Positions 10,208 to 19,536 are shown, numbered from the stretch's first letter. The stretch: DNA of 64,000 nt from an uncultured Solirubrobacterales bacterium (GCA_963787415.1 CAWBCO010000002.1:84962-148961), one strand, 5' to 3'. Numbers and translations are program-made. The notes: generated from the letters alone by a model not told the origin.

Positions 10208-11323
10208 CTAGCCGTGAAAACCGAAGGACTCGGTACCGCTCTTGCCCGCAGCGGAGCCTGAGCTGGAGCCCGCGGAAGACGATGACGGAGAACTCCCTGT
10301 GGAGGCGGGAGCAGAGGCGGCAGTTTCGGTACTCGGCGGCGAGCTGCTCTCGATCCCAAACTGGGTCTCACCCTGTTGAGTCGGAGTTTCGCTCGGCGGG
10401 GATTCGGCAGGGGGAGCGGCCGGCGTTGATTGTGGGTGGCTCGATTCGTTGGCATGATCGGGGTTCGGTTCGGGAGCGGGAGAGGCCTTGCTTTCGGGGG
10501 CAGGCGTGGGACTCGGCGTCGACACCGGGGGTTGGGAGATCGGCTCAGAAACCGTCTTCACCTTCGGCGCCGGCGAATGGTGAGTCGGTGAGGGCGGCGG
10601 CGCGCTGATTCCGATTCCAGGCCCGACGATCCCGGTCGCGAGACAGGTTGCGGTGGTGGCGACACCAGCGGTGCAGACCGCAGCGATCTTCTGGGCGCTG
10701 CCGGCCAGCGCACCGGCACTTCCGCCGTCGCTGGGTTGAAGTGCGCCGGTTGATTTGAAGGCCGCAAGGCGAAGCTTTGCGGCAACCCCCTGCGCAGCGT
10801 GTGCCACCTCGCCTAACCAGCGCTGGAGATGATCGATGACTCCAACCCTGGCGGCGACCTGATCGGTTGCAAAACCCGCGAGCGCCAAAGCGCCGCCCAG
10901 CTCGTGCAGGTTTTCGTGAAACCGGGTCAGAAACGCGCGGCAGGAGCCGCAGTGTTGGAAGTGGGTATGGAGGATCCGTTCCTCGGCCTCGCTGGCCAGA
11001 CCGCTGGCCTCCCTGTCAAAGAGCGACCGACTGGCAAGCTGTTGCATCTCGGGACAGAACTCGGCGGCATCGATCGATTCGAGGCGAATTCTGACCTGCC
11101 GCGTGGCGCGCTGCAGCAGTTGTTTGGCCGCCGGAAGGCTGACCCCAAAGTGATCGGCGATCTCGCGAGCCTTAAACCCGCGACCGAAACGCAGGACGAT
11201 GACCTCGCGGTAGTTGCCACGCATTCGACCAAGCGCCTCGGTGAGGCGAACCGAATCCTCATGGATCTCGGCGAGCTCAGCGGGTGTCGGATTGAAGGTT
11301 GGAGCCTCCGCCACCGCCTGCAA
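10208..11323 (-). CDS. sigma region-4 HTH fused to a zinc-binding anti-sigma domain, TM helix and Pro/Ser-rich tail
   Basis: YREVIVLRFGRGFKAREIADHFGVSLPAAKQLLQRATRQVR is followed in the same ORF by HTHFQHCGSCRAF (HxxxCxxC), a TM helix (AAVCTAGVATTATCLATGIVG) and a P/S/T-rich tail. Only a TTG start is available. Confidence 0.6.
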   Translation of the reverse strand: MQAVAEAPTFNPTPAELAEIHEDSVRLTEALGRMRGNYREVIVLRFGRGFKAREIADHFGVSLPAAKQLLQRATRQVRIRLESIDAAEFCPEMQQLASRSLFDREASGLASEAEERILHTHFQHCGSCRAFLTRFHENLHELGGALALAGFATDQVAARVGVIDHLQRWLGEVAHAAQGVAAKLRLAAFKSTGALQPSDGGSAGALAGSAQKIAAVCTAGVATTATCLATGIVGPGIGISAPPPSPTHHSPAPKVKTVSEPISQPPVSTPSPTPAPESKASPAPEPNPDHANESSHPQSTPAAPPAESPPSETPTQQGETQFGIESSSPPSTETAASAPASTGSSPSSSSAGSSSGSAAGKSGTESFGFHG

Positions 11324-11618
11324 GCGGTACGGTCGGTCTCAGTGCCCGAGATCGCAGCTCATCAATCGCCGCATTTCGCACACTGGTGAAGAAGGCGGCG
11401 CGCAGGTTTCGCGGCCCCCGTCCGGCCTCGATCTGGCAATGAAGGCGGATCAATACATCCGAAACCGCATCCTCGACGTCGGCGCGAGACAGAGTGCCGT
11501 CGAAGTGCTTGGCAAGGTAGCGCTCGCCGAGTCCCCGTAACTCTTCGCATTCGCGTTCAAATCTGGCTGCCGCACGGCGGCTGGGCAGGCTACGAAGGAT
11601 GGCCGAGGCGGCCTCCAT
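11277..11618 (-). CDS. sigma-70 region-2 fragment of an ECF-like sigma factor
   Basis: DVEDAVSDVLIRLH ... FFTSVRNAAIDELRSR. It ends in a junk tail 47 nt into the next ORF, which is in another frame. Confidence 0.6.
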   Translation of the reverse strand: MEAASAILRSLPSRRAAARFERECEELRGLGERYLAKHFDGTLSRADVEDAVSDVLIRLHCQIEAGRGPRNLRAAFFTSVRNAAIDELRSRALRPTVPLAGGGGGSNLQSDTR

Positions 11619-11790
11619 TAGAGCTTGCCCCCTTTATCGAGTCGGCGGGTGGATATCGCCCCTTGATACAGACCGCTTCGGTTCATCAGCTCCAAGACGT
11701 TGGTAGAAGCGGTTTCGATACCCCATGACCAAAACTCTTTTAAATCCAAGGCGAACCTCCCGGTCCCTTGTTCGGATCTGAGAATAGCTC

Positions 11791-11826
11791 GGGGAGGGGC
11801 GAGCGACAACCGCGCTCACCCCTCCC
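11791..11826 (-). terminator. GC-rich hairpin downstream of ssb
   Basis: GGGGAGGGGCGAGCG / CGCGCTCACCCCTCCC imperfect inverted repeat, 14 nt after the ssb stop. No clear U-tract. Confidence 0.4.
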
Positions 11827-11839
11827 AAAGCGCCCGAGG

Positions 11840-12193
11840 CTAGGACGCCTCGGTCTCCAAAAGCGACTCGGGATCGCCGTTTGCAGAGCGGCGGCCTTTG
11901 CCGTCGGAGAGGAAGTCGACCCGATCTGCTGCGATCGAGTATTCGGAGCGCTTTGCTCCATCATCGGCCTCCCACTCGCGGAAACGCAGCTGGCCTGCGA
12001 CGGCCACCTGGCGACCCTTTGTGAGGTACTGGGTGCAGGTCTCGGCCTGGCGACCAAAGACCGAAACGTTGATGTAGAGGGGCGACCCGGTGCGACCGTT
12101 CTCCGCCATTCGAATGCGGCAGACCTTGGTCTTCTCGCCCTCTCGCAGGTCGGGATCCTTGGTCAAGGCACCAACCAGGGTTACTGAGTTCAT
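11840..12193 (-). CDS. ssb: single-stranded DNA-binding protein
   Basis: MNSVTLVGALTKDPDLRE ... VSVFGRQAETCTQYLTKGRQVAVAGQLRFREWE is an OB-fold SSB signature, followed by a short acidic-ish tail. Confidence 0.8.
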   Translation of the reverse strand: MNSVTLVGALTKDPDLREGEKTKVCRIRMAENGRTGSPLYINVSVFGRQAETCTQYLTKGRQVAVAGQLRFREWEADDGAKRSEYSIAADRVDFLSDGKGRRSANGDPESLLETEAS

Positions 12194-12211
12194 CTCACAC
12201 TTCTCCTTCCA

Positions 12212-12225
12212 AGCCCCGTGGGGCT
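12212..12225 (-). promoter_or_regulatory. short GC hairpin immediately 5' of the ssb RBS (copy 1 of 3)
   Basis: AGCCCC-GT-GGGGCT sits next to GGAAGGAG and the ATG. The same arrangement precedes both other ssb-like genes. Confidence 0.35.
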
Positions 12226-12280
12226 GCTTTGGCTTCTCGAAGCGGCTCGCTTCGATGCTTGGGACCGCATCCGTGGGTGG

Positions 12281-13978
12281 TCAAGAGGACTCCGGCATCT
12301 CGCGTAGCCGTTGCCAGGGGGGCACGACCTTGGCGCGGCGTGCTCTGGTTGTGCCGGTCTCATCGAGGCGGGCGACGAAGGCCTCACCGGAGGCAAGGCG
12401 CTGCAGCTCGGACGGGTTGACCTCGAAGCGGTAGCCGCGGGTGCGGGTTCCCTCCGAGGTGGGACGGCCGAGGCCGTCGGTACGAATTGTGCTCTGCCAG
12501 GTCGGAATCACTCCGATCAGCTGCCCCACCCACTCCGCATCGGCCTGCTCGCCGAGGCGATGACAGACGATCGCTGAAATCGTTGCGCCGATCCGCTCGC
12601 GGACCGCGGGCCCCGCAGCGTGCAGGTCGGCAAGAGTCTGGGTGCCGACCGCGACGCTGAAACCGGCCGCCCTGCCACGGGTATAGAGACGGTCGATCGC
12701 CGGTGCCTCCAGGGCGCCGAACTCATCGATGCCGACGAAGGTACCAACCCCCTTGCCCATCAATGCGCTCGCCGCAGCGCCGAGATCGAGCAGCACCATC
12801 TGGGCGATCGCACGTCCAACGTTTCCGGTCCGATCGGTGTCAAAGCGCAGGTAGACGACCTCGCGCCGCTCGATCGCCGCGCGCAGGTCGAAGGCGTTAA
12901 CGCTCGGACGCTCAGGATCGAGCCAGTCGCGGGCAAACCCTGAGGAGGCGAGGTTTTGCAGGCGAGCCGCGAGGCCGGCGATCGCGCGATGTTGATCGGA
13001 GCGAAGCCCCTTACAGGTCAGGCTGACCTCATCAGCGGTCCTGGGGTCCTCACACTCCTGCGCCAGGTTCGTCAGCTCATCTGGAGCGCAGTAGCGAGCA
13101 ACCGTTGAGAGTGTCACCGCCCGCCCGCTGGCGTCGAGAGTTCGCAGGACGAGGCGCAGGAAGGGCGAGGCTGCCTGGCGGTAGAAACCGGCATCGGTCG
13201 AGCCCCAGCTCTCGACCGCGATCAGACGCTCGGAGCGCTCATCGACTGAGCCATGGGCGAGAGGGTCATAGGTGCTCGGTCCGTCTGGGGAGAAGAGGTG
13301 AAAAGGGACGCCGCGGGCCGCCGCGGATGCCCGCGATGCCTCACAGAGGGCGGCATCGGTCTTGGCCTCCATGACCACAGCGCCAAACCCGGAGCGAACC
13401 ACATAGTCGACCAGCATCGAGGCCAAGGTGGTGGTCTTGCCGGCACCGGTTGCGCCTGGGATCAGCACGTGGCACCCCGAGCGCGCCGTGCCGCGCGGAA
13501 TCATCGCCAGCTCACCGCGAGCGGTGCGCCCGATTGGGACGCCCGCGGCAAGAATGCGCTCACGGAGTTTGCCGCGCTCCGCACGGCGGGTGCGCACCGC
13601 GTCCAGGGGCCCGCGGCGCTGCGAGGCACTGACGGCGCGATCGGCGCCGGCGCGACGATCCTCGAGGTGAGCACGGGCGCCGAGGCTGAGAATGCCCGCT
13701 GCAGCGCCGAGTGTGAGCCCGAGTGAAATCGTCGCGCCAGCGAGGTCGAGATCGCCGGCGCCGATCAGCTCGATCAGCAGTATGGGCGGCGCCACGCTCA
13801 GAAGCCCCCAGGTCCAGGCCAGTTGGCGATGGCGAAGGTAGAGCGCGCAGAGAGCGCCGAGGCAAGCTGCCACCGCAAGGCAACCGCCGCCGATCGCGAC
13901 CAGGTGGGCAAAGACGTTTAGGTTGTGAAGGGCGGGGAGATGAGGGGCAAGACTGGGACGAATCGCTGAGTTCTTCAC
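12281..13978 (-). CDS. type IV coupling protein (VirD4/TraG/TraD family)
   Basis: 565 aa with N-terminal TM helices, Walker A LIPGATGAGKTT and Walker B-like FVGIDEFGALE. Confidence 0.8.
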   Translation of the reverse strand: MKNSAIRPSLAPHLPALHNLNVFAHLVAIGGGCLAVAACLGALCALYLRHRQLAWTWGLLSVAPPILLIELIGAGDLDLAGATISLGLTLGAAAGILSLGARAHLEDRRAGADRAVSASQRRGPLDAVRTRRAERGKLRERILAAGVPIGRTARGELAMIPRGTARSGCHVLIPGATGAGKTTTLASMLVDYVVRSGFGAVVMEAKTDAALCEASRASAAARGVPFHLFSPDGPSTYDPLAHGSVDERSERLIAVESWGSTDAGFYRQAASPFLRLVLRTLDASGRAVTLSTVARYCAPDELTNLAQECEDPRTADEVSLTCKGLRSDQHRAIAGLAARLQNLASSGFARDWLDPERPSVNAFDLRAAIERREVVYLRFDTDRTGNVGRAIAQMVLLDLGAAASALMGKGVGTFVGIDEFGALEAPAIDRLYTRGRAAGFSVAVGTQTLADLHAAGPAVRERIGATISAIVCHRLGEQADAEWVGQLIGVIPTWQSTIRTDGLGRPTSEGTRTRGYRFEVNPSELQRLASGEAFVARLDETGTTRARRAKVVPPWQRLREMPESS

Positions 13979-14109
13979 AAAGGCAAGACGTGCACCAGCG
14001 AAAAAGGTGACCCCCTGCCAAGATCTATTTCATTTGGACCCTCGATTTGACTTCGCGCAAGCGCGATCCCTGGGTCGCTAGTCAGCCAGCTGAGGAGAGG
14101 CTGCGACTG

Positions 14110-14137
14110 GGGCTGGCTCGTTACTTGGAGCCAGCCC
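14110..14137 (-). terminator. perfect 10-bp stem hairpin after the decapeptide-repeat gene
   Basis: GGGCTGGCTC-N8-GAGCCAGCCC, 16 nt downstream of the TGA at 14153-14155. Confidence 0.45.
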
Positions 14138-14152
14138 GCAATCGCTTCGGCT

Positions 14153-14918
14153 TCAGCCGGTGGTCACCTCTCCGAAGACCACGCACCTTTCGGGCGCTTC
14201 CATGTTGAATGTCTGGTAGTCATACCCGAGCTGGCCGCTGATTACCGTCCCGGTGCTGAGCGCACCTGAGAATGTCGACTCGCCGTAGGAGTTTTCTTTG
14301 CCGCCTTCTTCATCGAGGCGGATCGAAGCTGCTTTTCCGGCTTTGGCCGACTGATAGCTAAAAATGCTGTTGACGGCGCCGTGTGCTTCTTCACCTTCGA
14401 CCCTCAGAGCTCAGGACTGAGCCAGCCGAGGAAGGAGAGGTCAACGTAACGTTGACGTTTTCTGCTTCACAGGTTGCGGTGATCGTGAAACCCGAAACCG
14501 CCGTCACCTGGACATTGCTCTGCCCTGGAGTGAGGATCTTGAAAATCTTGCTCGGCGTCTGGCCGTTGACCGAGTTCGCGCTGCTGGCGCTGTTGGCCGT
14601 GGTTGCGCTGGGAACTGTCCCGAGCGTGCTGAGGTTGATGTTGGCGCCGGTCAAGGAACCATTGGCTACCTTCACTCCCGTCACGGCGGCATTGGCGATC
14701 TTGGCGCCGCTGATCGCGTTGCTGTTGATCTTCGCTTCGGTGACAGCGTTGTTCTTGATCTTTGCCGTTGTGATCGCGTTCTTCTTGATCTGGTTGGAAC
14801 CGACGCTGTTCTTGGCGAGCTTTGTCGCGGCCAAGGCGGTGGCGCCGCCGAGGAGGAGGAAGACGGCGATCGTCGACATCACATTGGCATAGGTCAGCTT
14901 GCGGCGGATCGTTCTCAC
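14153..14918 (-). pseudogene. secreted decapeptide-repeat protein, apparent frameshift near 14393
   Basis: GTG start at 14918 after AAGGGAG. Signal anchor RKLTYANVMSTIAVFLLLGGATALAA. Six 10-residue repeats (KNAITTAKI / KNNAVTEAKI ...). The frame ends at 14391 and a protein-like frame (VEGEEAHGAVNSIF...VVFGEVTTG) continues to 14153. Confidence 0.55.
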
Positions 14919-15089
14919 TGGAACTCCCTTTCGTTTAGATGACGAGCGGAGCAGCCTATTTCGCGAGACCCGGACCACGTATGCCGGCTTCGAACAAACG
15001 CTGAGTGAGCAAGGAGAACAAAATCTGAATCCAGGTGAGCTACTAGGTCGGGCCTTTTGATTCAAAAAAGTCTGGGTCGTGGCAATGCA

Positions 15090-15380
15090 TTACTTGACCG
15101 CGACATTCACCTTTGGTCCAGCTGTAATCACAGTCCCCGGCTGGGCTTCTGAGTCCTCACCTTCGCCGGCTGTTCTTTTTGCCCTTGACCTTCCCCGAGC
15201 TTGCATTCGGCCTTTAGAAATGCCTTCTTCGGAGCCTTGAGCTTCCTGCCCTTCAGCTTGGGGACGGTGCGGGAGACTTTGGCGGGCAATGGCTGTGACA
15301 CCGGGGCCGCCGTTTACGTGAACCGATCGGCTGAGCTTGTCGCAGTCGTTCCAGTCGGAGTCGTGACGCTGGTATCGACT
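15090..15380 (-). pseudogene. decayed 3'-end remnant of an IPT/TIG-PASTA-like surface protein gene (copy of 63068-63362)
   Basis: Aligns by eye at roughly 80-85% identity to 63068-63362. It carries an in-frame TAA after ADRFT and a 1-nt insertion in the Lys-rich segment. Confidence 0.65.
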
Positions 15381-15545
15381 GCCCTGAAGTCGGGGTGGGC
15401 GGAGCCGCGATCTGACCGTCGGTCCAGCGGGTTTGCACTGGCGTAGAATTCGGCTTGATAACCACCGCTCAGCGAACAGCGTCCGCGCATCAGCTCTCGG
15501 GTCGTGGCCGCTGACAGCTTCGAGAACGGCGGCAAACAGCCGGCA

Positions 15546-15863
15546 TCAACTAGTTCGTCTCTGATGCGACCACCGACAGCTGGAGCCGTAGCCGACGATC
15601 TCCGAATCCAACACCGATGCGGCGTCACCACGTACTGCCATGTCCCGGCTCACCTCGAGTCGCTCGATCCGGCGCTCGGTGTAGCTGCTGGGGCGACGTT
15701 GTTTGAGGCGCTCGATCTCAGCCGAGGCCTCAACCCCGCTGCTGGGGTAGGCGAAGGACTCCCCGTGGACCATCGCCAGGTTGCGTAGATAGCGCAGTTG
15801 CTTGTCGGTGGGCGGTCGCCGTGACGCGGGGCCTGGCTGGGTCGAATCTGGGCTGGCACTCAT
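15546..15863 (-). CDS. hypothetical protein
   Basis: The Met at 15863 is preceded by GAGAGGAG. Contains PPTDKQLRYLRNLAMVHGESF. The C-terminus may continue in another frame (15314-15631). Confidence 0.35.
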   Translation of the reverse strand: MSASPDSTQPGPASRRPPTDKQLRYLRNLAMVHGESFAYPSSGVEASAEIERLKQRRPSSYTERRIERLEVSRDMAVRGDAASVLDSEIVGYGSSCRWSHQRRTS

Positions 15864-15925
15864 CGGTGACTCCTCTCGCTCTCGGTTCTGGCTTTCGCCG
15901 ACGAAGCGAGAAGGCCCGGCAAAGG

Positions 15926-16693
15926 TCAACGCCGCACCGCAGGGGAGGGGAGCGAGAGCTCCCTTGCGGCGGGGGCCGGTCGGGCAAAATCGAGCGAGGT
16001 GGCGAAGGCCGAGACCATGAGCGCAGCCTCCGATAGCTCCTGGACCTTGATCGCCCCGGCAGTTCGAGTCCGCTCTACCGCTGCCTCGACAAAGCGCCGG
16101 GTGCGCGGGGCGCAGTGGTAGATGACGCCGGTGAAACGGCGCTCAACGACCGCGCGGCGCCAGGACCGCAACAGCTCATCGAGGACGGCCGCACCCTTGG
16201 TACTCAGCTCAACCTCGATCGCCTCCCGCGGCTGACCCTGATCATCGATACGAACCAGATCGGGTCGGTGAAAGCCGCCGCCCGTGAGGGCCGCCGAGAG
16301 GATCCGGTCGCCCTCTGCGCGTTCGATTGCCATGATCTCCCGCTCAGAGAGCAGCGTCTCCCCGCAGCGCTCGATCCCTGCTCCGACTTCAGCAACGACC
16401 GTATCGTGGCTGAGTGCTGAAGCGGAGACCCGCGCGGGTCGCAGTTCTCGCCGGCCAGCTGCGGCCAATCCGCTCGCGGTGCAGGCCGAGAAGGGACCCG
16501 AATTTCCGAGTCCACGAAACACTCGAATCAGGCCGGCCTTTCGAAGCCGGCTCTCGCGCACGATCGTCACCGTGCGGGCGGTTCCTGCCCACGTCGCGAC
16601 AGCGCTGCGCGGAACGACTCCGTAGCGGGCGATGAACTCAAGTACCTCGAGGTCGCGCTCGCTGATTCGATCTGTTCTCTTGCCATCAGGCAT
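15926..16693 (-). CDS. replication-relaxation (Replic_Relax, PF13814-like) family protein
   Basis: N-terminal wHTH-like ISERDLEVLEFIARYGVVPRSAV, then HDTVVAEV ... HRPDLVRID ... IEVELSTKG, which resembles the family pattern. Confidence 0.6.
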   Translation of the reverse strand: MPDGKRTDRISERDLEVLEFIARYGVVPRSAVATWAGTARTVTIVRESRLRKAGLIRVFRGLGNSGPFSACTASGLAAAGRRELRPARVSASALSHDTVVAEVGAGIERCGETLLSEREIMAIERAEGDRILSAALTGGGFHRPDLVRIDDQGQPREAIEVELSTKGAAVLDELLRSWRRAVVERRFTGVIYHCAPRTRRFVEAAVERTRTAGAIKVQELSEAALMVSAFATSLDFARPAPAARELSLPSPAVRR

Positions 16694-16789
16694 CTCTCCT
16701 CCTAGACGTTTCAGCTTTGAAATGGGGACACCAAGAAGAGTCCGGCGCCAAATGTTGGCGCCGGACTCAGAGCTGCTTGAGAAGGAAGC

Positions 16790-17098
16790 TCAGGCAACTG
16801 CAACCAACTCGCGGGCGATCACGGAATGCTTGGAGCGCTTCTGAGCTTTGGCCTTGGACGAAGCCCTGGACTCCCACTCTGAGTAGCGAAGCGCCCCGCG
16901 GACCTCGACGCGAGAGCCCTTGCTGAAACCCTCGGCGCTGGTCTCGGCCAGCTGGTCGAAGGCGACGACGTCGATGAAGAGAGGCGGTGTGTTGCCCGGG
17001 CCGTTGACGGCGAGCCGCAGATCACAGACCTTGCGATCTCCTCGCTCGTTCAGCTCGGGGTCCTTGGTCAGCCGACCCTCCAGCTCTACTTTGTTCAT
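16790..17098 (-). CDS. SSB-like OB-fold protein (paralogue 2)
   Basis: Internal Met at 17098 after GGAAGGAAGAG. MNKVELEGRLTKDPELNE ... IDVVAFDQLAETSAEGFSKGSRVEVRGALRYSEWE. Confidence 0.65.
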   Translation of the reverse strand: MNKVELEGRLTKDPELNERGDRKVCDLRLAVNGPGNTPPLFIDVVAFDQLAETSAEGFSKGSRVEVRGALRYSEWESRASSKAKAQKRSKHSVIARELVAVA

Positions 17099-17114
17099 CT
17101 CTTCCTTCCTGTTG

Positions 17115-17127
17115 GCCCCGATGGGGC
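17115..17127 (-). promoter_or_regulatory. short GC hairpin 5' of the RBS of ssb-like paralogue 2
   Basis: GCCCC-GAT-GGGGC lies 17-29 nt upstream of the ATG. Confidence 0.35.
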
Positions 17128-17292
17128 TGGTGTTTGCTTGCGAAGCGACCAAGCCCCGGAAAGGCGAGGCGCGCACCGAAGGGGAAGGGAGCGAAGCGAC
17201 CTTGCGCGGTGAGCCGACGGGGCAAAATGGAGTGCAGCTGCAAACGCCCCCACCGGAGCCGAAGGGGAAGGCGGGGTGAACCCGCTGGATCG

Positions 17293-17475
17293 GCTGCCAG
17301 CTGCGACCGCGCTGACTGCGAGTCCTCAGCGACTTGCGGCCCAGCCAATTGCAACGTCACGGGCGATCACCGAGTGGAGTAGAGCCGGCGCGAACCGGGC
17401 CAGGGTTCGGAGCGGAGCTGGCCGCTGATCGCTAGGGGGTCGCCCTCGGAGAGCTCCTCTGCGAGTCGCATGGCG
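17293..17475. repeat. about 180-bp direct repeat, copy A (partner at 18301-18485)
   Basis: ctgccagctgcgaccgcgctgactgcgagtcctcagcgacttgcgg ... aligns to 18301 onward at roughly 85% identity by eye. Confidence 0.6.
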
Positions 17476-18140
17476 AGCCACCACAGCTCCTGCACCCAAA
17501 CCATTTCGCCAGTCCCGGTGCGCTCAATTGCTTTTTCGACATAGCACCGGCTGCGCGGGGTGCAGCGATAGGTGACCCGGATGATTCGCTGTTCGGCGAC
17601 CGCACGACACCAGGCGTCGAGCAACTCATCGAGTCGGGCGGCACCCTTGGCCGTCAGCACGACCTCGATCGCCTAACCGAGCTCTTCGTCGCGATCGACG
17701 CGAAGCAGATCGGCGCGGTGGAAGCGACCGCTGGAAAGACTGGCAGAGAGCATCCCCTTTCCCTCGGCGCGCTCGCGGGCGAGAATCTGACGCTTGGAGA
17801 GGACCCGGTGGCCGCCTCGCTCGAGCCCGGCGGCCACGTGTGCGACTGTGGATTCGGGGTGGATCGAGGCCAAGGAGATCCGGGCCGGACGGAGTTGGCC
17901 ATGACGGCTGGCGTGAAGGCCAGACTTGGTGGCGATCAGCAGCGGCTCACCCCTGACAAAGAACTGCTGGACGGTGATCAGGCCGTCCTTGTGCAGGCGC
18001 CTCTCGCGGGCGTAGGTGGTGCTACGCGCAGTCGCGGCCCAGCGAGCCACGGCGCTTCGGGGGACGACGCCAAAACGAGCGATGAATCCGAGCACCTCGA
18101 CGTCGCGCTCGCTGATCAGGTCTGTTCGCTTACCACCCAT
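17367..18140 (-). pseudogene. second Replic_Relax copy with an in-frame TAG, its 3' end fused to an SSB-like gene fragment
   Basis: MGGKRTDLISERDVEVLGFIARFGVVPRSAV is parallel to copy 1. TAG at 17673-17675 is in the same frame as the continuation AIEVVLTAKGAARLDELL. The tail AMRLAEELSEGDPLAISGQLRSEPWPGSRRLY matches the middle of the 18320-18631 gene. Confidence 0.65.
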
Positions 18141-18300
18141 CTGTGTCCTAGACGTCCGCCCTCGCAGAAAGGGACACCCGAGCAAGAGCCCGGCGCCGCT
18201 GGCGCCGGGCTCTTGAGGTTGAAAGTGCTGCTTGTCAGGCGGCAAGCTTGATCTCGCTGGCGATCATCGAGTGCCTGGAGCGCTTTTGAGCTTTGATCGA

Positions 18301-18485
18301 TTGCCAGCTGCAGCTGCGCTCACTGCGAGTCCTCAGCGACTTGCGAGCCGGCCAACTGCACATCGCGGGCGATCACCGAGTGGATGTAGAGCCGCCGCGA
18401 TCCGGGCCAACGTTCAGAGCGAAGGTGGCCGCTGATCGCCACCGAGTCGCCCTCGGAGAGCTCCTCCGCGAGTCGTACGGCGAGG
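18301..18485. repeat. about 180-bp direct repeat, copy B
   Basis: Covers the 3' half of the SSB-like gene 18320-18631. Confidence 0.6.
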
Positions 18486-18631
18486 ACGTTGAACGCGGTC
18501 ACCTTGACGTAGACCTTGTACTTGTCGCGTCGACCATGGACCACGAGCCAGAACTCACAGACATCGCGGCCAGGTACTCCCATCAGGGATGGTTCGCTAT
18601 CGAGGTGACCGAAGAAACTGACGTTGTTCAT
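18320..18631 (-). CDS. divergent SSB-like OB-fold protein (paralogue 3)
   Basis: MNNVSFFGHLDSEPSL ... KVTAFNVLAVRLAEELSEGDSVAISGHLRSERW. It has the same hairpin-RBS leader as the other two ssb genes. Confidence 0.5.
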   Translation of the reverse strand: MNNVSFFGHLDSEPSLMGVPGRDVCEFWLVVHGRRDKYKVYVKVTAFNVLAVRLAEELSEGDSVAISGHLRSERWPGSRRLYIHSVIARDVQLAGSQVAEDSQ

Positions 18632-18825: not shown

Positions 18826-19161
18826 TCACCGACTCCACATCGCATCAAGCAGCCCGGCCACTTCCTCGCTCTCGGTGCTGTCGAGCACAGTCCCGATCGC
18901 CGCAGGGCTCATTGGGCACTGATCCAGGCATTCGGCCTGCTGGAGGTAGTCCCTGATGAAAGCCTCCAATATCACCGAGTCCTGCCAACCGCGGTCTACG
19001 TAATAGGCGGGGCCCTCGCCGCTCGCCGGTGTGTCGAGGAGCTCGGTGCCACCGCTCGCGCGGCGACCAATCACAACGCGCTCGCCGGCGGAGATTCGGT
19101 AGCGGGCGATTTCTGTGCCCTCGCGCTTGAGGCTGTCGATGTCGAGCTGTACTTCGGTCAT
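18826..19161 (-). CDS. hypothetical protein
   Basis: 111-aa protein-like ORF with no recognisable motif. Confidence 0.35.
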   Translation of the reverse strand: MTEVQLDIDSLKREGTEIARYRISAGERVVIGRRASGGTELLDTPASGEGPAYYVDRGWQDSVILEAFIRDYLQQAECLDQCPMSPAAIGTVLDSTESEEVAGLLDAMWSR

Positions 19162-19536
19162 GTTGAACCTCCCGTCTCGGTTGATCGAACGGGCGAGCGC
19201 ATCGCACCGGACAGCTGAGGGCGGAACCCCGAGCCGCAGGCGAGGGGCCGAAGGAGGCCCTTTTAGGGCCTTGAAGTACTCAGCGCCGGTGCCAGGATGG
19301 GTGAGCCTCGATCCACCGAGGAGGAAGAGCCGCAGAGAAAGCAGTCCGGCTTAAGACCCCAAGCCGAATGCACCTGGAACAGCCGACCCCGCCGCCCTGC
19401 GCCGGCTCGTCTCGACGACCAACTCGGTCGAGCACCTAAACCGCCGGATCCGCAAGAGGATCAAGACACGGGCCCACAACCGGAGGGTTGGCCGATGACC
19501 GCCGTCAAGACCTGCGACGCCCGCTGTCTTTCGAAT

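Follow-up and report, generated by a model that had tools for sequence, protein, structure and literature searches.

How did a single locus come to carry three genes for single-stranded DNA-binding (SSB) proteins interspersed with two copies of a putative relaxase gene, one of them decayed? The locus lies in a 64,000-nucleotide (nt) stretch of DNA from an uncultured Solirubrobacterales bacterium, C2:84962-148961 of a 3.35-Mb metagenome-assembled genome (MAG) in nine contigs; we refer to the whole of this stretch as the window. The putative relaxase gene belongs to a family with products of ∼220 amino acids (aa), here called RR, whose two copies in the window are RR1 and RR2. The SSB genes are SSB1, SSB2 and SSB3, and together with the RR genes and the neighboring genes of the module they all lie on the minus strand (Table 1). 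An initial annotation of this DNA explained the array by repeated duplication of an ssb plus Replic_Relax unit, followed by deletion and decay. We favor a different reading, in which the locus is a module of an integrative conjugative element (ICE), the SSB genes are ancient paralogues, RR1 is a probable relaxase gene and RR2 is a lineage-specific dead copy; in this we have, for the reading as a whole, fairly good confidence.

This part of the window is the module for DNA processing and establishment in an undescribed Solirubrobacterales ICE. Downstream of the SSB and RR genes, on the same strand, lie genes for a type IV coupling protein (T4CP), a sigma-70 factor (in two frames), TcpC, TcpE, a VirB4-like ATPase of the AAA_10 family, an 876-aa protein and an SLT hydrolase. 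The ICE components found are the AAA_10 VirB4 ATPase (171 bits), TcpE, TcpC, SLT, a TrwB-type T4CP and a tyrosine integrase, the last of which is encoded at C2:80366-81511, just beyond the window edge; the genes of the type IV secretion system (T4SS) are single-copy in the genome. The element resembles the Tcp/FA-type systems of Gram-positive bacteria (e.g. Tcp of pCW3 and the Tn916-like ICEs) in having TcpC, TcpE, an AAA_10 VirB4-like ATPase and an SLT hydrolase. It differs from them in that its coupling protein is TrwB/VirD4-like and not an FtsK-like TcpA, and in that its candidate relaxase resembles the MOBC type instead of MOBT or TcpM.

Age and position of the three SSB genes

The initial annotation had recognized three OB-fold SSB-like genes in the locus, and profile searches bore this out: all three products score above the PF00436 gathering cut-off of 26 bits. 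The most divergent of them, SSB3, falls below the cut-off of the NCBIfam model TIGR00621 (20.9 against 53.95). A profile of its orthologues matches SSBs in the Protein Data Bank (PDB) at E 2e-20, its AlphaFold2 (AF2) model is an OB-fold barrel (pLDDT 88.9), and this model matches the solved SSBs of Coxiella, Streptomyces, Bacillus and Mycobacterium with Foldseek TM scores of 0.7-0.78 and a probability of 1.00.

A scan of GTDB species genomes yielded 79 loci, in 25 of which RR is followed by a T4CP gene. Contigs with RR homologues share one gene order, i.e. the small gene p111, SSB, SSB, RR, small genes, T4CP, SSB, sigma factor and Tcp genes. An SSB gene stands directly after the T4CP gene in every one of the 25 RR-T4CP loci, and at least three SSB open reading frames (ORFs) are present in 14 of them (four in L047), three being the commonest state. 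A related element, L024, is a fifteenth three-SSB locus, but its ssbA has an internal stop (an in-frame TAG). In distant elements, where RR is 29-37% identical, T4CP, RR and one SSB still adjoin one another. The presence of several SSB genes near a coupling protein gene, which had been regarded as unusual, is thus the norm in this family.

In a tree of 86 SSBs, which does not include the interrupted ssbA of L024, the element SSBs form one clade (support 100, starred) that excludes the chromosomal SSB. Inside this clade, the subclades match gene position: SSBc (26 rows, support 92), SSBa (support 98, starred) and SSBb (support 85). The SSB1, SSB2 and SSB3 of the window each stand beside their counterpart from L023, the closest sister element described below, and SSB1 and SSB2 stand beside those of L024 as well. 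Because such position-specific orthologue clades are common to up to 25 related elements, we conclude that SSBa, SSBb and SSBc are ancient paralogues with fixed positions and did not arise by local duplication. The ancestral order on the minus strand is p111, SSBa, SSBb, RR, a DUF3072-like gene, T4CP, SSBc, the sigma factor and the Tcp/FA-type T4SS.

A canonical bacterial SSB carries a flexible linker and an acidic C-terminal tip (D-D-D-I-P-F), which recruits partner proteins. The chromosomal SSB of this genome (C7:357012, 149 aa) has a Gly-rich linker and ends in ...GGGGDDDIPF. The SSBs of the element are 102-117 aa long and end in ...LLETEAS (SSB1), ...ELVAVA (SSB2) and ...VAEDSQ (SSB3), and because they have neither the linker nor the DDDIPF tip we class them as SsbB-like short SSBs and not as housekeeping proteins. 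Aromatic positions that we take to match E. coli W54, F60 and W88 are kept in the SSB alignment, as judged by eye. Short tail-less SSB paralogues serve incoming or specialized single-stranded DNA (ssDNA) and not replication. The window SSBs are, like SsbB of B. subtilis and S. aureus and the small SSB of Streptomyces (PDB 3vdy, 5yyu and 4dam), OB-fold-only proteins of ∼100-117 aa, and the SSB3 model fits these structures with TM scores of ∼0.7-0.77; unlike the short chromosomal SSBs, they are borne by an element and group in a clade of their own, away from the host SSB. The most likely role of the element SSBs would be to cover the transferred single strand, in the donor and/or the recipient, without recruiting the partners of the host SSB. 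Protection of transferred ssDNA is a plausible role, which fits the conservation of these genes beside the coupling protein gene.

A second comparison is with the ssb genes in the leading regions of plasmids (F, ColIb-P9 and pED208), which are likewise encoded by a conjugative element and likewise stand among small genes of establishment type that follow repeated structured non-coding elements. A plasmid SSB can be a substrate of the T4SS (PMC8406263, PMC11541004). The window element differs from the plasmids in having three fixed paralogues instead of one, all of them without the acidic tip, and in that its SSB genes flank the putative relaxase and coupling protein genes instead of lying in a separate region. 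The family is a sizeable and so far unannotated group of conjugative elements from Solirubrobacterales, Actinomycetota that are abundant in soil, with a fixed set of three specialized SSBs.

The same genome has a second cluster, at C2:706311-715740, that contains two further SSB genes together with a DUF3072-like gene and a p111-like gene, and in which no match to RR or T4SS genes was found; this cluster may be a remnant of another element.

The RR2 pseudogene and the 817-nt insert

The two genes that had been labeled Replic_Relax-like are true paralogues, with 51% protein identity over 253 residues, although the label itself was not reproduced (see below). The in-frame TAG reported for the second copy was confirmed. 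RR2 has also lost the second acidic residue of the family motif (E162V, i.e. EVE to EVV), and it reaches the natural C-terminus of the family (...VQEL) only to continue directly into ssbA-derived codons (LAMRLAEELSEGD...). The junction of RR2 with the 3' half of an ssb gene is therefore as the initial annotation had it, although a 43-nt copy of the 3' end of ssbB on the other side of RR2, at 18253-18295, had been missed. The repeat structure of the region was reproduced by self-BLASTN, in which 16057-16850 matches 17507-18295 (65% over 813 nt) and 17288-17477 matches 18295-18484 (85% over 191 nt), the latter being the repeat of ∼180 bp that had been placed at 17293-17475 and 18301-18485. The second copy can still be described as a decayed chimeric unit, its components (ssbB 3' end, spacer and RR) being homologous to the ssbB-RR1 unit.

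Comparison with L023 defines what was added to the window. This sister element, whose RR is 98% identical to RR1 and whose T4SS block is 94% identical at the nucleotide level, is collinear with the window except in two places. Window positions 19467 to 18295 correspond to L023 1-1152 (88.9%), and positions 17477 to 15550 correspond to L023 963-2893 (93.6%). The segment L023 963-1152, i.e. the last 165 nt of ssbA and ∼26 nt beyond it, is consequently present twice in the window, and its two copies bracket an insert of 817 nt (18294 to 17478), in which the 43-nt ssbB 3' end is followed by a spacer and RR2. Identity of the insert to the RR1 unit is 64% and to the L023 unit 63.5%, and no sampled element exceeds 71%. 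The two ssbA copies that bracket it share 85% identity and match L023 at 88-90%; the downstream copy is dead, with a 1-nt deletion, a 1-nt insertion and a stop codon changed from TGA to TCA. RR2 is absent from both L023 and L024, and L023 has SSBa, SSBb and RR with a normal gap of 216 nt; among the 12 loci that lack an insert here, ssbA and ssbB stand 216-455 nt apart, and for 10 of these loci the distance stays within 216-289 nt. No convincing microhomology was found at the insert junctions (J1, right after 18296, and 17477/17478).

These results bear directly on the proposal that the array as a whole was built up locally by serial tandem duplications of an ssb plus RR unit, with later deletion and decay. 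In its favor, the two units are collinear over the 813 nt mentioned above, including the ssbB 3' end, and a partial duplicate of the ssbA 3' end at the corresponding position of L024 could hint at an older, shared duplication. The three SSB genes, however, belong to three old orthologue clades defined by position, the related elements have a single RR, and the element closest to the window, L023, has neither RR2 nor an enlarged gap. Moreover, one event of one age cannot give both a 64% identical RR2 unit and an 85-90% identical ssbA fragment, and the two ssbA fragments, from L024 and from the window, share 77% identity and are not each other's closest relatives. Repeated duplication of the unit is therefore not supported as the origin of the array, and we consider it very unlikely.

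The same contrast argues about RR2 itself. Because RR2 is 64% (nt) and 51% (aa) identical to RR1, against 85-90% for the equally non-functional ssbA fragment, it is not a recent in situ duplicate of RR1. In the RR tree, RR1 groups with the L023 and L024 genes (support 100, starred) inside a starred clade of 11 rows, and RR2 falls outside this clade. Some points tell against a foreign and dead RR2. An approximately unbiased (AU) test in which RR2 was forced together with the RR1 clade, as its sister, did not reject that topology (p = 0.137), which leaves room for RR1 and RR2 as one clade under the tandem-duplication proposal too; RR2 may be an old in situ duplicate that was later lost in L023; and its TAG codon could be a sequencing error. 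Since the AU test is not significant, the case for a foreign origin rests on the divergence contrast and on the absence of RR2 from L023.

The RR2 segment, or its defects, might alternatively be an artefact of metagenome assembly or of long-read error, given that the genome is a nine-contig MAG and that related MAGs contain many frameshifts (e.g. in the VirB4 gene of L024). RR2 differs from RR1 by 35%, however, and the flanking repeats differ by 15%, which makes them too unlike for an assembler to confuse, and there are several independent signs of decay, i.e. the TAG, E162V, the two indels and lost stop of the ssbA fragment and the fused 3' end. We regard an artefact as extremely improbable.

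We therefore return to RR2 as a lineage-specific dead copy. The anatomy of the insert is given by the alignments, and from it we infer how it may have formed. A fragment from a diverged sister element, comprising the final 43 nt of an ssbB, the spacer and RR, would have been joined between ssbA and ssbB via two illegitimate junctions, in an event that duplicated the 190-nt 3' half of ssbA; RR2 would have decayed after insertion or might already have been decayed before it. Likely routes would be template switching during replication or transfer of the element, or recombination and deletion involving co-resident elements or elements integrated in tandem. Co-residence of elements is plausible because further RR, T4CP and integrase modules adjoin this one. 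Local duplication and decay of this kind are ordinary mobile-element wear.

Among the sequences compared, the position following ssbA appears to be an insertion hotspot. The duplicate in L024 at the corresponding spot comprises 108 nt of the ssbA 3' end, and the events that left ssbA fragments in L024 and in the window were probably independent insertions there. A Phd/YefM-VapC (PIN) toxin-antitoxin pair occupies the ssbA-ssbB gap in L024 (4397-5215) and in L026 (8311-9594), the pair in L024 being frameshifted.

RR1 as a candidate relaxase

RR1 is intact and consists of the ∼220-aa core of its family followed by a disordered read-through tail of 35 aa, which is also present in L023 and L024. 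The family is large, with 298 matches from the initial search and, at E<1e-3, 1,298 representatives from an exhaustive one. Its members come mainly from Solirubrobacterales MAGs, and in the source records all are named 'hypothetical protein' save for one stray 'HAMP domain-containing protein'.

We consider RR1, with moderate confidence, a candidate for a remote MOBC-like relaxase, because of a profile-profile match, a model with a winged helix-turn-helix (wHTH) and a nuclease-like domain, conserved D/E/E/K/Y motifs and linkage to T4CP. A 64-sequence RR profile was aligned by hhalign with 21 actinobacterial ORFs that pass the PF13814 (Replic_Relax) threshold, giving a probability of 96.5% and an E-value of 9.6e-10 over 194 columns, which cover both the wHTH and the nuclease core and place the D and E positions of RR opposite the PD and E.D columns of the PF13814 members. 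The AF2 model of RR1 (pLDDT 86.5) consists of a wHTH (residues 12-71) and an alpha/beta domain. Residues H96, H142, D145, E160, E162, K166 and Y192 are kept in at least 90% of the 64 RR sequences, down to ∼27-36% identity to RR1, and RR adjoins T4CP in ∼45 of the 79 loci, including distant ones at 29-37% identity.

PF13814 is a PD-(D/E)XK family (PMC3424549) that has been equated with the MOBC relaxases, which are paired with VirD4-type coupling proteins (PMC5357655). MOBC enzymes have a DEE metal site and, in TraX, also an essential Tyr (PMC6736028, citing Francia 2013). The MOBC relaxases (TraX of pAD1 and MobC of CloDF13) appear to share with RR an architecture of HTH plus PD-(D/E)xK-type nuclease, as judged from the AF2 model, together with linkage to a VirD4/TrwB-type coupling protein and profile-profile homology (PMC3424549, PMC5357655, PMC6736028). 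They also appear, at the sequence level, to share the acidic D..E.E pattern and a conserved Tyr, and the D/E/E motif of RR would on this basis correspond to the MOBC 'DEE' metal site. RR1 would bind the origin of transfer (oriT) via its wHTH and nick it via a site formed by D145, E160 and E162, with K166 and Y192. No canonical relaxase family was found among the other ORFs scanned.

Several results weigh against this assignment. Neither RR1 nor RR2 matched PF13814 at E<0.1 in Pfam, RR1 scored 14.9 bits on the NCBIfam model NF041423 (MobC_subf) against a cut-off of 200, and the RR model gave nothing at E<1e-3 in a Foldseek search of the PDB. The best partial Foldseek matches, all with E>1e-3, were MarR-type regulators and YaeQ, a PD-(D/E)xK protein (probability 0.9-1.0, TM 0.2-0.3). 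No nicking site or oriT was identified. In addition, RR1 may be neither the sole nor the actual relaxase, because there is a further Replic_Relax-like gene, with a second T4CP gene, at C2:82612-84662. Among 10 distant RR members searched with Pfam, one reached PF13814, at 17.5 bits and so under the 25.3 cut-off. A tblastn search of 72,556 plasmids with RR1 gave a single weak match, in Streptomyces, annotated as hypothetical. RR1 is accordingly not a PF13814 member by curated criteria, and the Replic_Relax label holds at superfamily level only. The RR family differs from MOBC in failing the Pfam and NCBIfam thresholds, in its length of ∼220 aa and in its restriction mainly to Solirubrobacterales MAGs, with the one weak plasmid match.

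The further genes just referred to lie at the far end of the element (C2:80366-84662, equivalent to 10367-14663 of locus L127), where the tyrosine integrase is accompanied by an RR-like gene that has lost the motif (RR''), a second TrwB-type T4CP (431 aa) and the Replic_Relax-like gene (C2:83901-84662), which scores 21.4 bits on PF13814, just under the cut-off. These genes may be an integrative mobilizable element (IME) accreted to the ICE, or a second DNA transfer and replication (Dtr) module. Solo RR genes also occur in the same genome beside recombinases, in IME-like units, with a serine recombinase on C1 and a trio of tyrosine recombinases on C7.

The far-end genes enter into the alternative that the anatomy of the locus is as we describe it, with RR being a regulator or accessory of the transfer module that has a wHTH-nuclease fold, and nicking being performed by the product of C2:83901-84662 or by an unrecognized protein. 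The original interpretation of Replic_Relax was indeed that of a predicted transcriptional regulator carrying an HTH fusion (PMC3424549), RR1 lies under the curated thresholds, and the far-end gene scores better on PF13814 and has its own T4CP and tyrosine integrase. Set against this, conservation of D/E/E/K and Tyr in at least 90% of 64 sequences is expected of an enzyme and not of a pure regulator, the close linkage of RR and T4CP holds at 29-37% identity, and the solo RR copies adjoin recombinases in IME-like units. The far-end gene, moreover, is itself under the cut-off, and the RR'' next to it has no motif. A purely regulatory or accessory RR is, in our judgment, somewhat unlikely, and a relaxase of remote MOBC type remains the reading that we prefer.

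If RR is the relaxase, these elements would be counted as conjugative and not as orphan T4SSs. The candidate is so far from MOBC that Pfam, NCBIfam and, by extension, MOB typing miss it, and the RR family would, if the assignment is true, extend a poorly studied class of nuclease-fold relaxases.

The solo RR regions on the other contigs both lie near contig ends. The one on C1 (553-6223) contains a large serine recombinase gene, an RR with a frameshift, a conserved small gene and a block with a leader element (see below) and SSB2 that is 94% identical to window positions 16720-17296, the matching part being C1:5649-6223. The one on C7 (482505-486478) contains an intact RR followed by three consecutive tyrosine recombinase genes.

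Leader elements and other features of the module

A structured element of ∼115 nt occurs twice in the window (Table 1) and once more in the same genome at C1:5701-5815. In ∼30 related loci it stands, in gene sense, just 5' of ssbB, of the DUF3072-like gene and of some other small genes. Across 28 copies, pairing in a four-helix fold reaches 91%, compared with 38-49% in slid controls; compensatory changes back this fold, both sides being altered in 11 of the 26 pairs, and the covariation score is 0.175 compared with 0.064 for shuffles, none of 500 shuffles reaching the observed value. The apical CUCCCUUCCCCU is invariant and is complementary to the downstream ribosome-binding site, which is purine-rich and could be masked by it. 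A search of 11-20 kb against Rfam gave no match. Wobble counts bear on the strand, with 7 G.T pairs in the sense and 19 in the antisense-equivalent orientation, a count weakened by alignment offsets in the outer helix; the element would act either as a leader in RNA or as a single-strand promoter. The two window copies include a 94-nt repeat (15902-15994 and 17141-17232) that was considered as a trace of tandem duplication; this was rejected, as the conserved structured leader is found at both positions in relatives.

A more far-reaching interpretation is that the tail-less SSB triad, the MOBC-like protein with its restriction-endonuclease fold and the TrwB-type T4CP constitute a distinct, undescribed relaxosome of Thermoleophilia, with the SSBs as integral partners of the relaxase and their expression timed by the ∼115-nt hairpins. 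The SSBs might then, for instance, present oriT as ssDNA or travel with the strand through the T4SS, and the covarying hairpins would time SSB expression as single-strand promoters or translational locks. We think this unlikely.

Table 1. Features of the module, with positions counted from the first nucleotide of the window.
Feature	Position	Strand	Evidence and remarks
SSB1, SSBc class, 117 aa, tail-less, directly 3' of T4CP	11840..12193	-	PF00436 86.3 bits; 100% identical to L023 counterpart
Type IV coupling protein (TrwB/TraD-like), 565 aa	12281..13978	-	PF10412 36.3 bits and PF12696 23.9 bits, both above cut-off
Lineage-specific insertion, ∼1.5 kb, outside the ancestral module	14007..15550	.	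Absent from L023, which has 73 nt instead
DUF3072-like small gene	15546..15929	-	PF11272 E 0.0046, under cut-off; 3' of RR in most related loci
Leader copy 2, upstream of the DUF3072-like gene, overlaps the RR1 read-through tail	15891..16006	-	nhmmer E 1.6e-22
RR1, intact ORF, 255 aa, wHTH + PD-(D/E)xK-like, putative MOBC-like relaxase	15926..16693	-	AF2, hhalign, motifs
SSB2, SSBb class, 102 aa, family start the ATG at 17098	16790..17098	-	PF00436 65.3 bits (for 16790-17098/17176)
Leader copy 1, upstream of SSB2	17130..17244	-	nhmmer E 2.7e-32; 5' of SSBb in ∼30 related loci
Decayed duplicate of the ssbA 3' half + 26 nt downstream	17288..17477	-	Contiguous with L023-like backbone
RR2 pseudogene	17478..18140	-	In-frame TAG 17673-17675; EVE to EVV; natural stop lost; fused to ssbA fragment
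Remnant (43 nt) of the 3' end of a foreign ssbB, coding for ...KAQKRSRHSMIASEI	18253..18295	-	86% identical to 16808-16850; 5' edge of inserted unit
SSB3, SSBa class, 103 aa, most divergent SSB paralogue	18320..18631	-	PF00436 45.3 bits
p111, small conserved gene 5' of SSBa	18826..19161	-	Without Pfam match; upstream of SSBa in >15 related loci

The T4CP is 96% identical in L023 and L024. The second place at which the window differs from L023 is the insertion next to the T4CP gene, which is unrelated to the RR2 insert. It holds a multi-copy gene for a secreted-repeat protein (14391-15065), with ∼25 paralogous matches in the genome, and a dispersed repeat of ∼300 nt (15086-15406) that is found with 80-85% identity at six other sites in the genome. 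The sigma-70 gene (10208-11618) consists of two overlapping frames, with region 2 apart from region 4, where relatives have a single ORF of 451-458 aa; the split is either a true frameshift or an assembly error.

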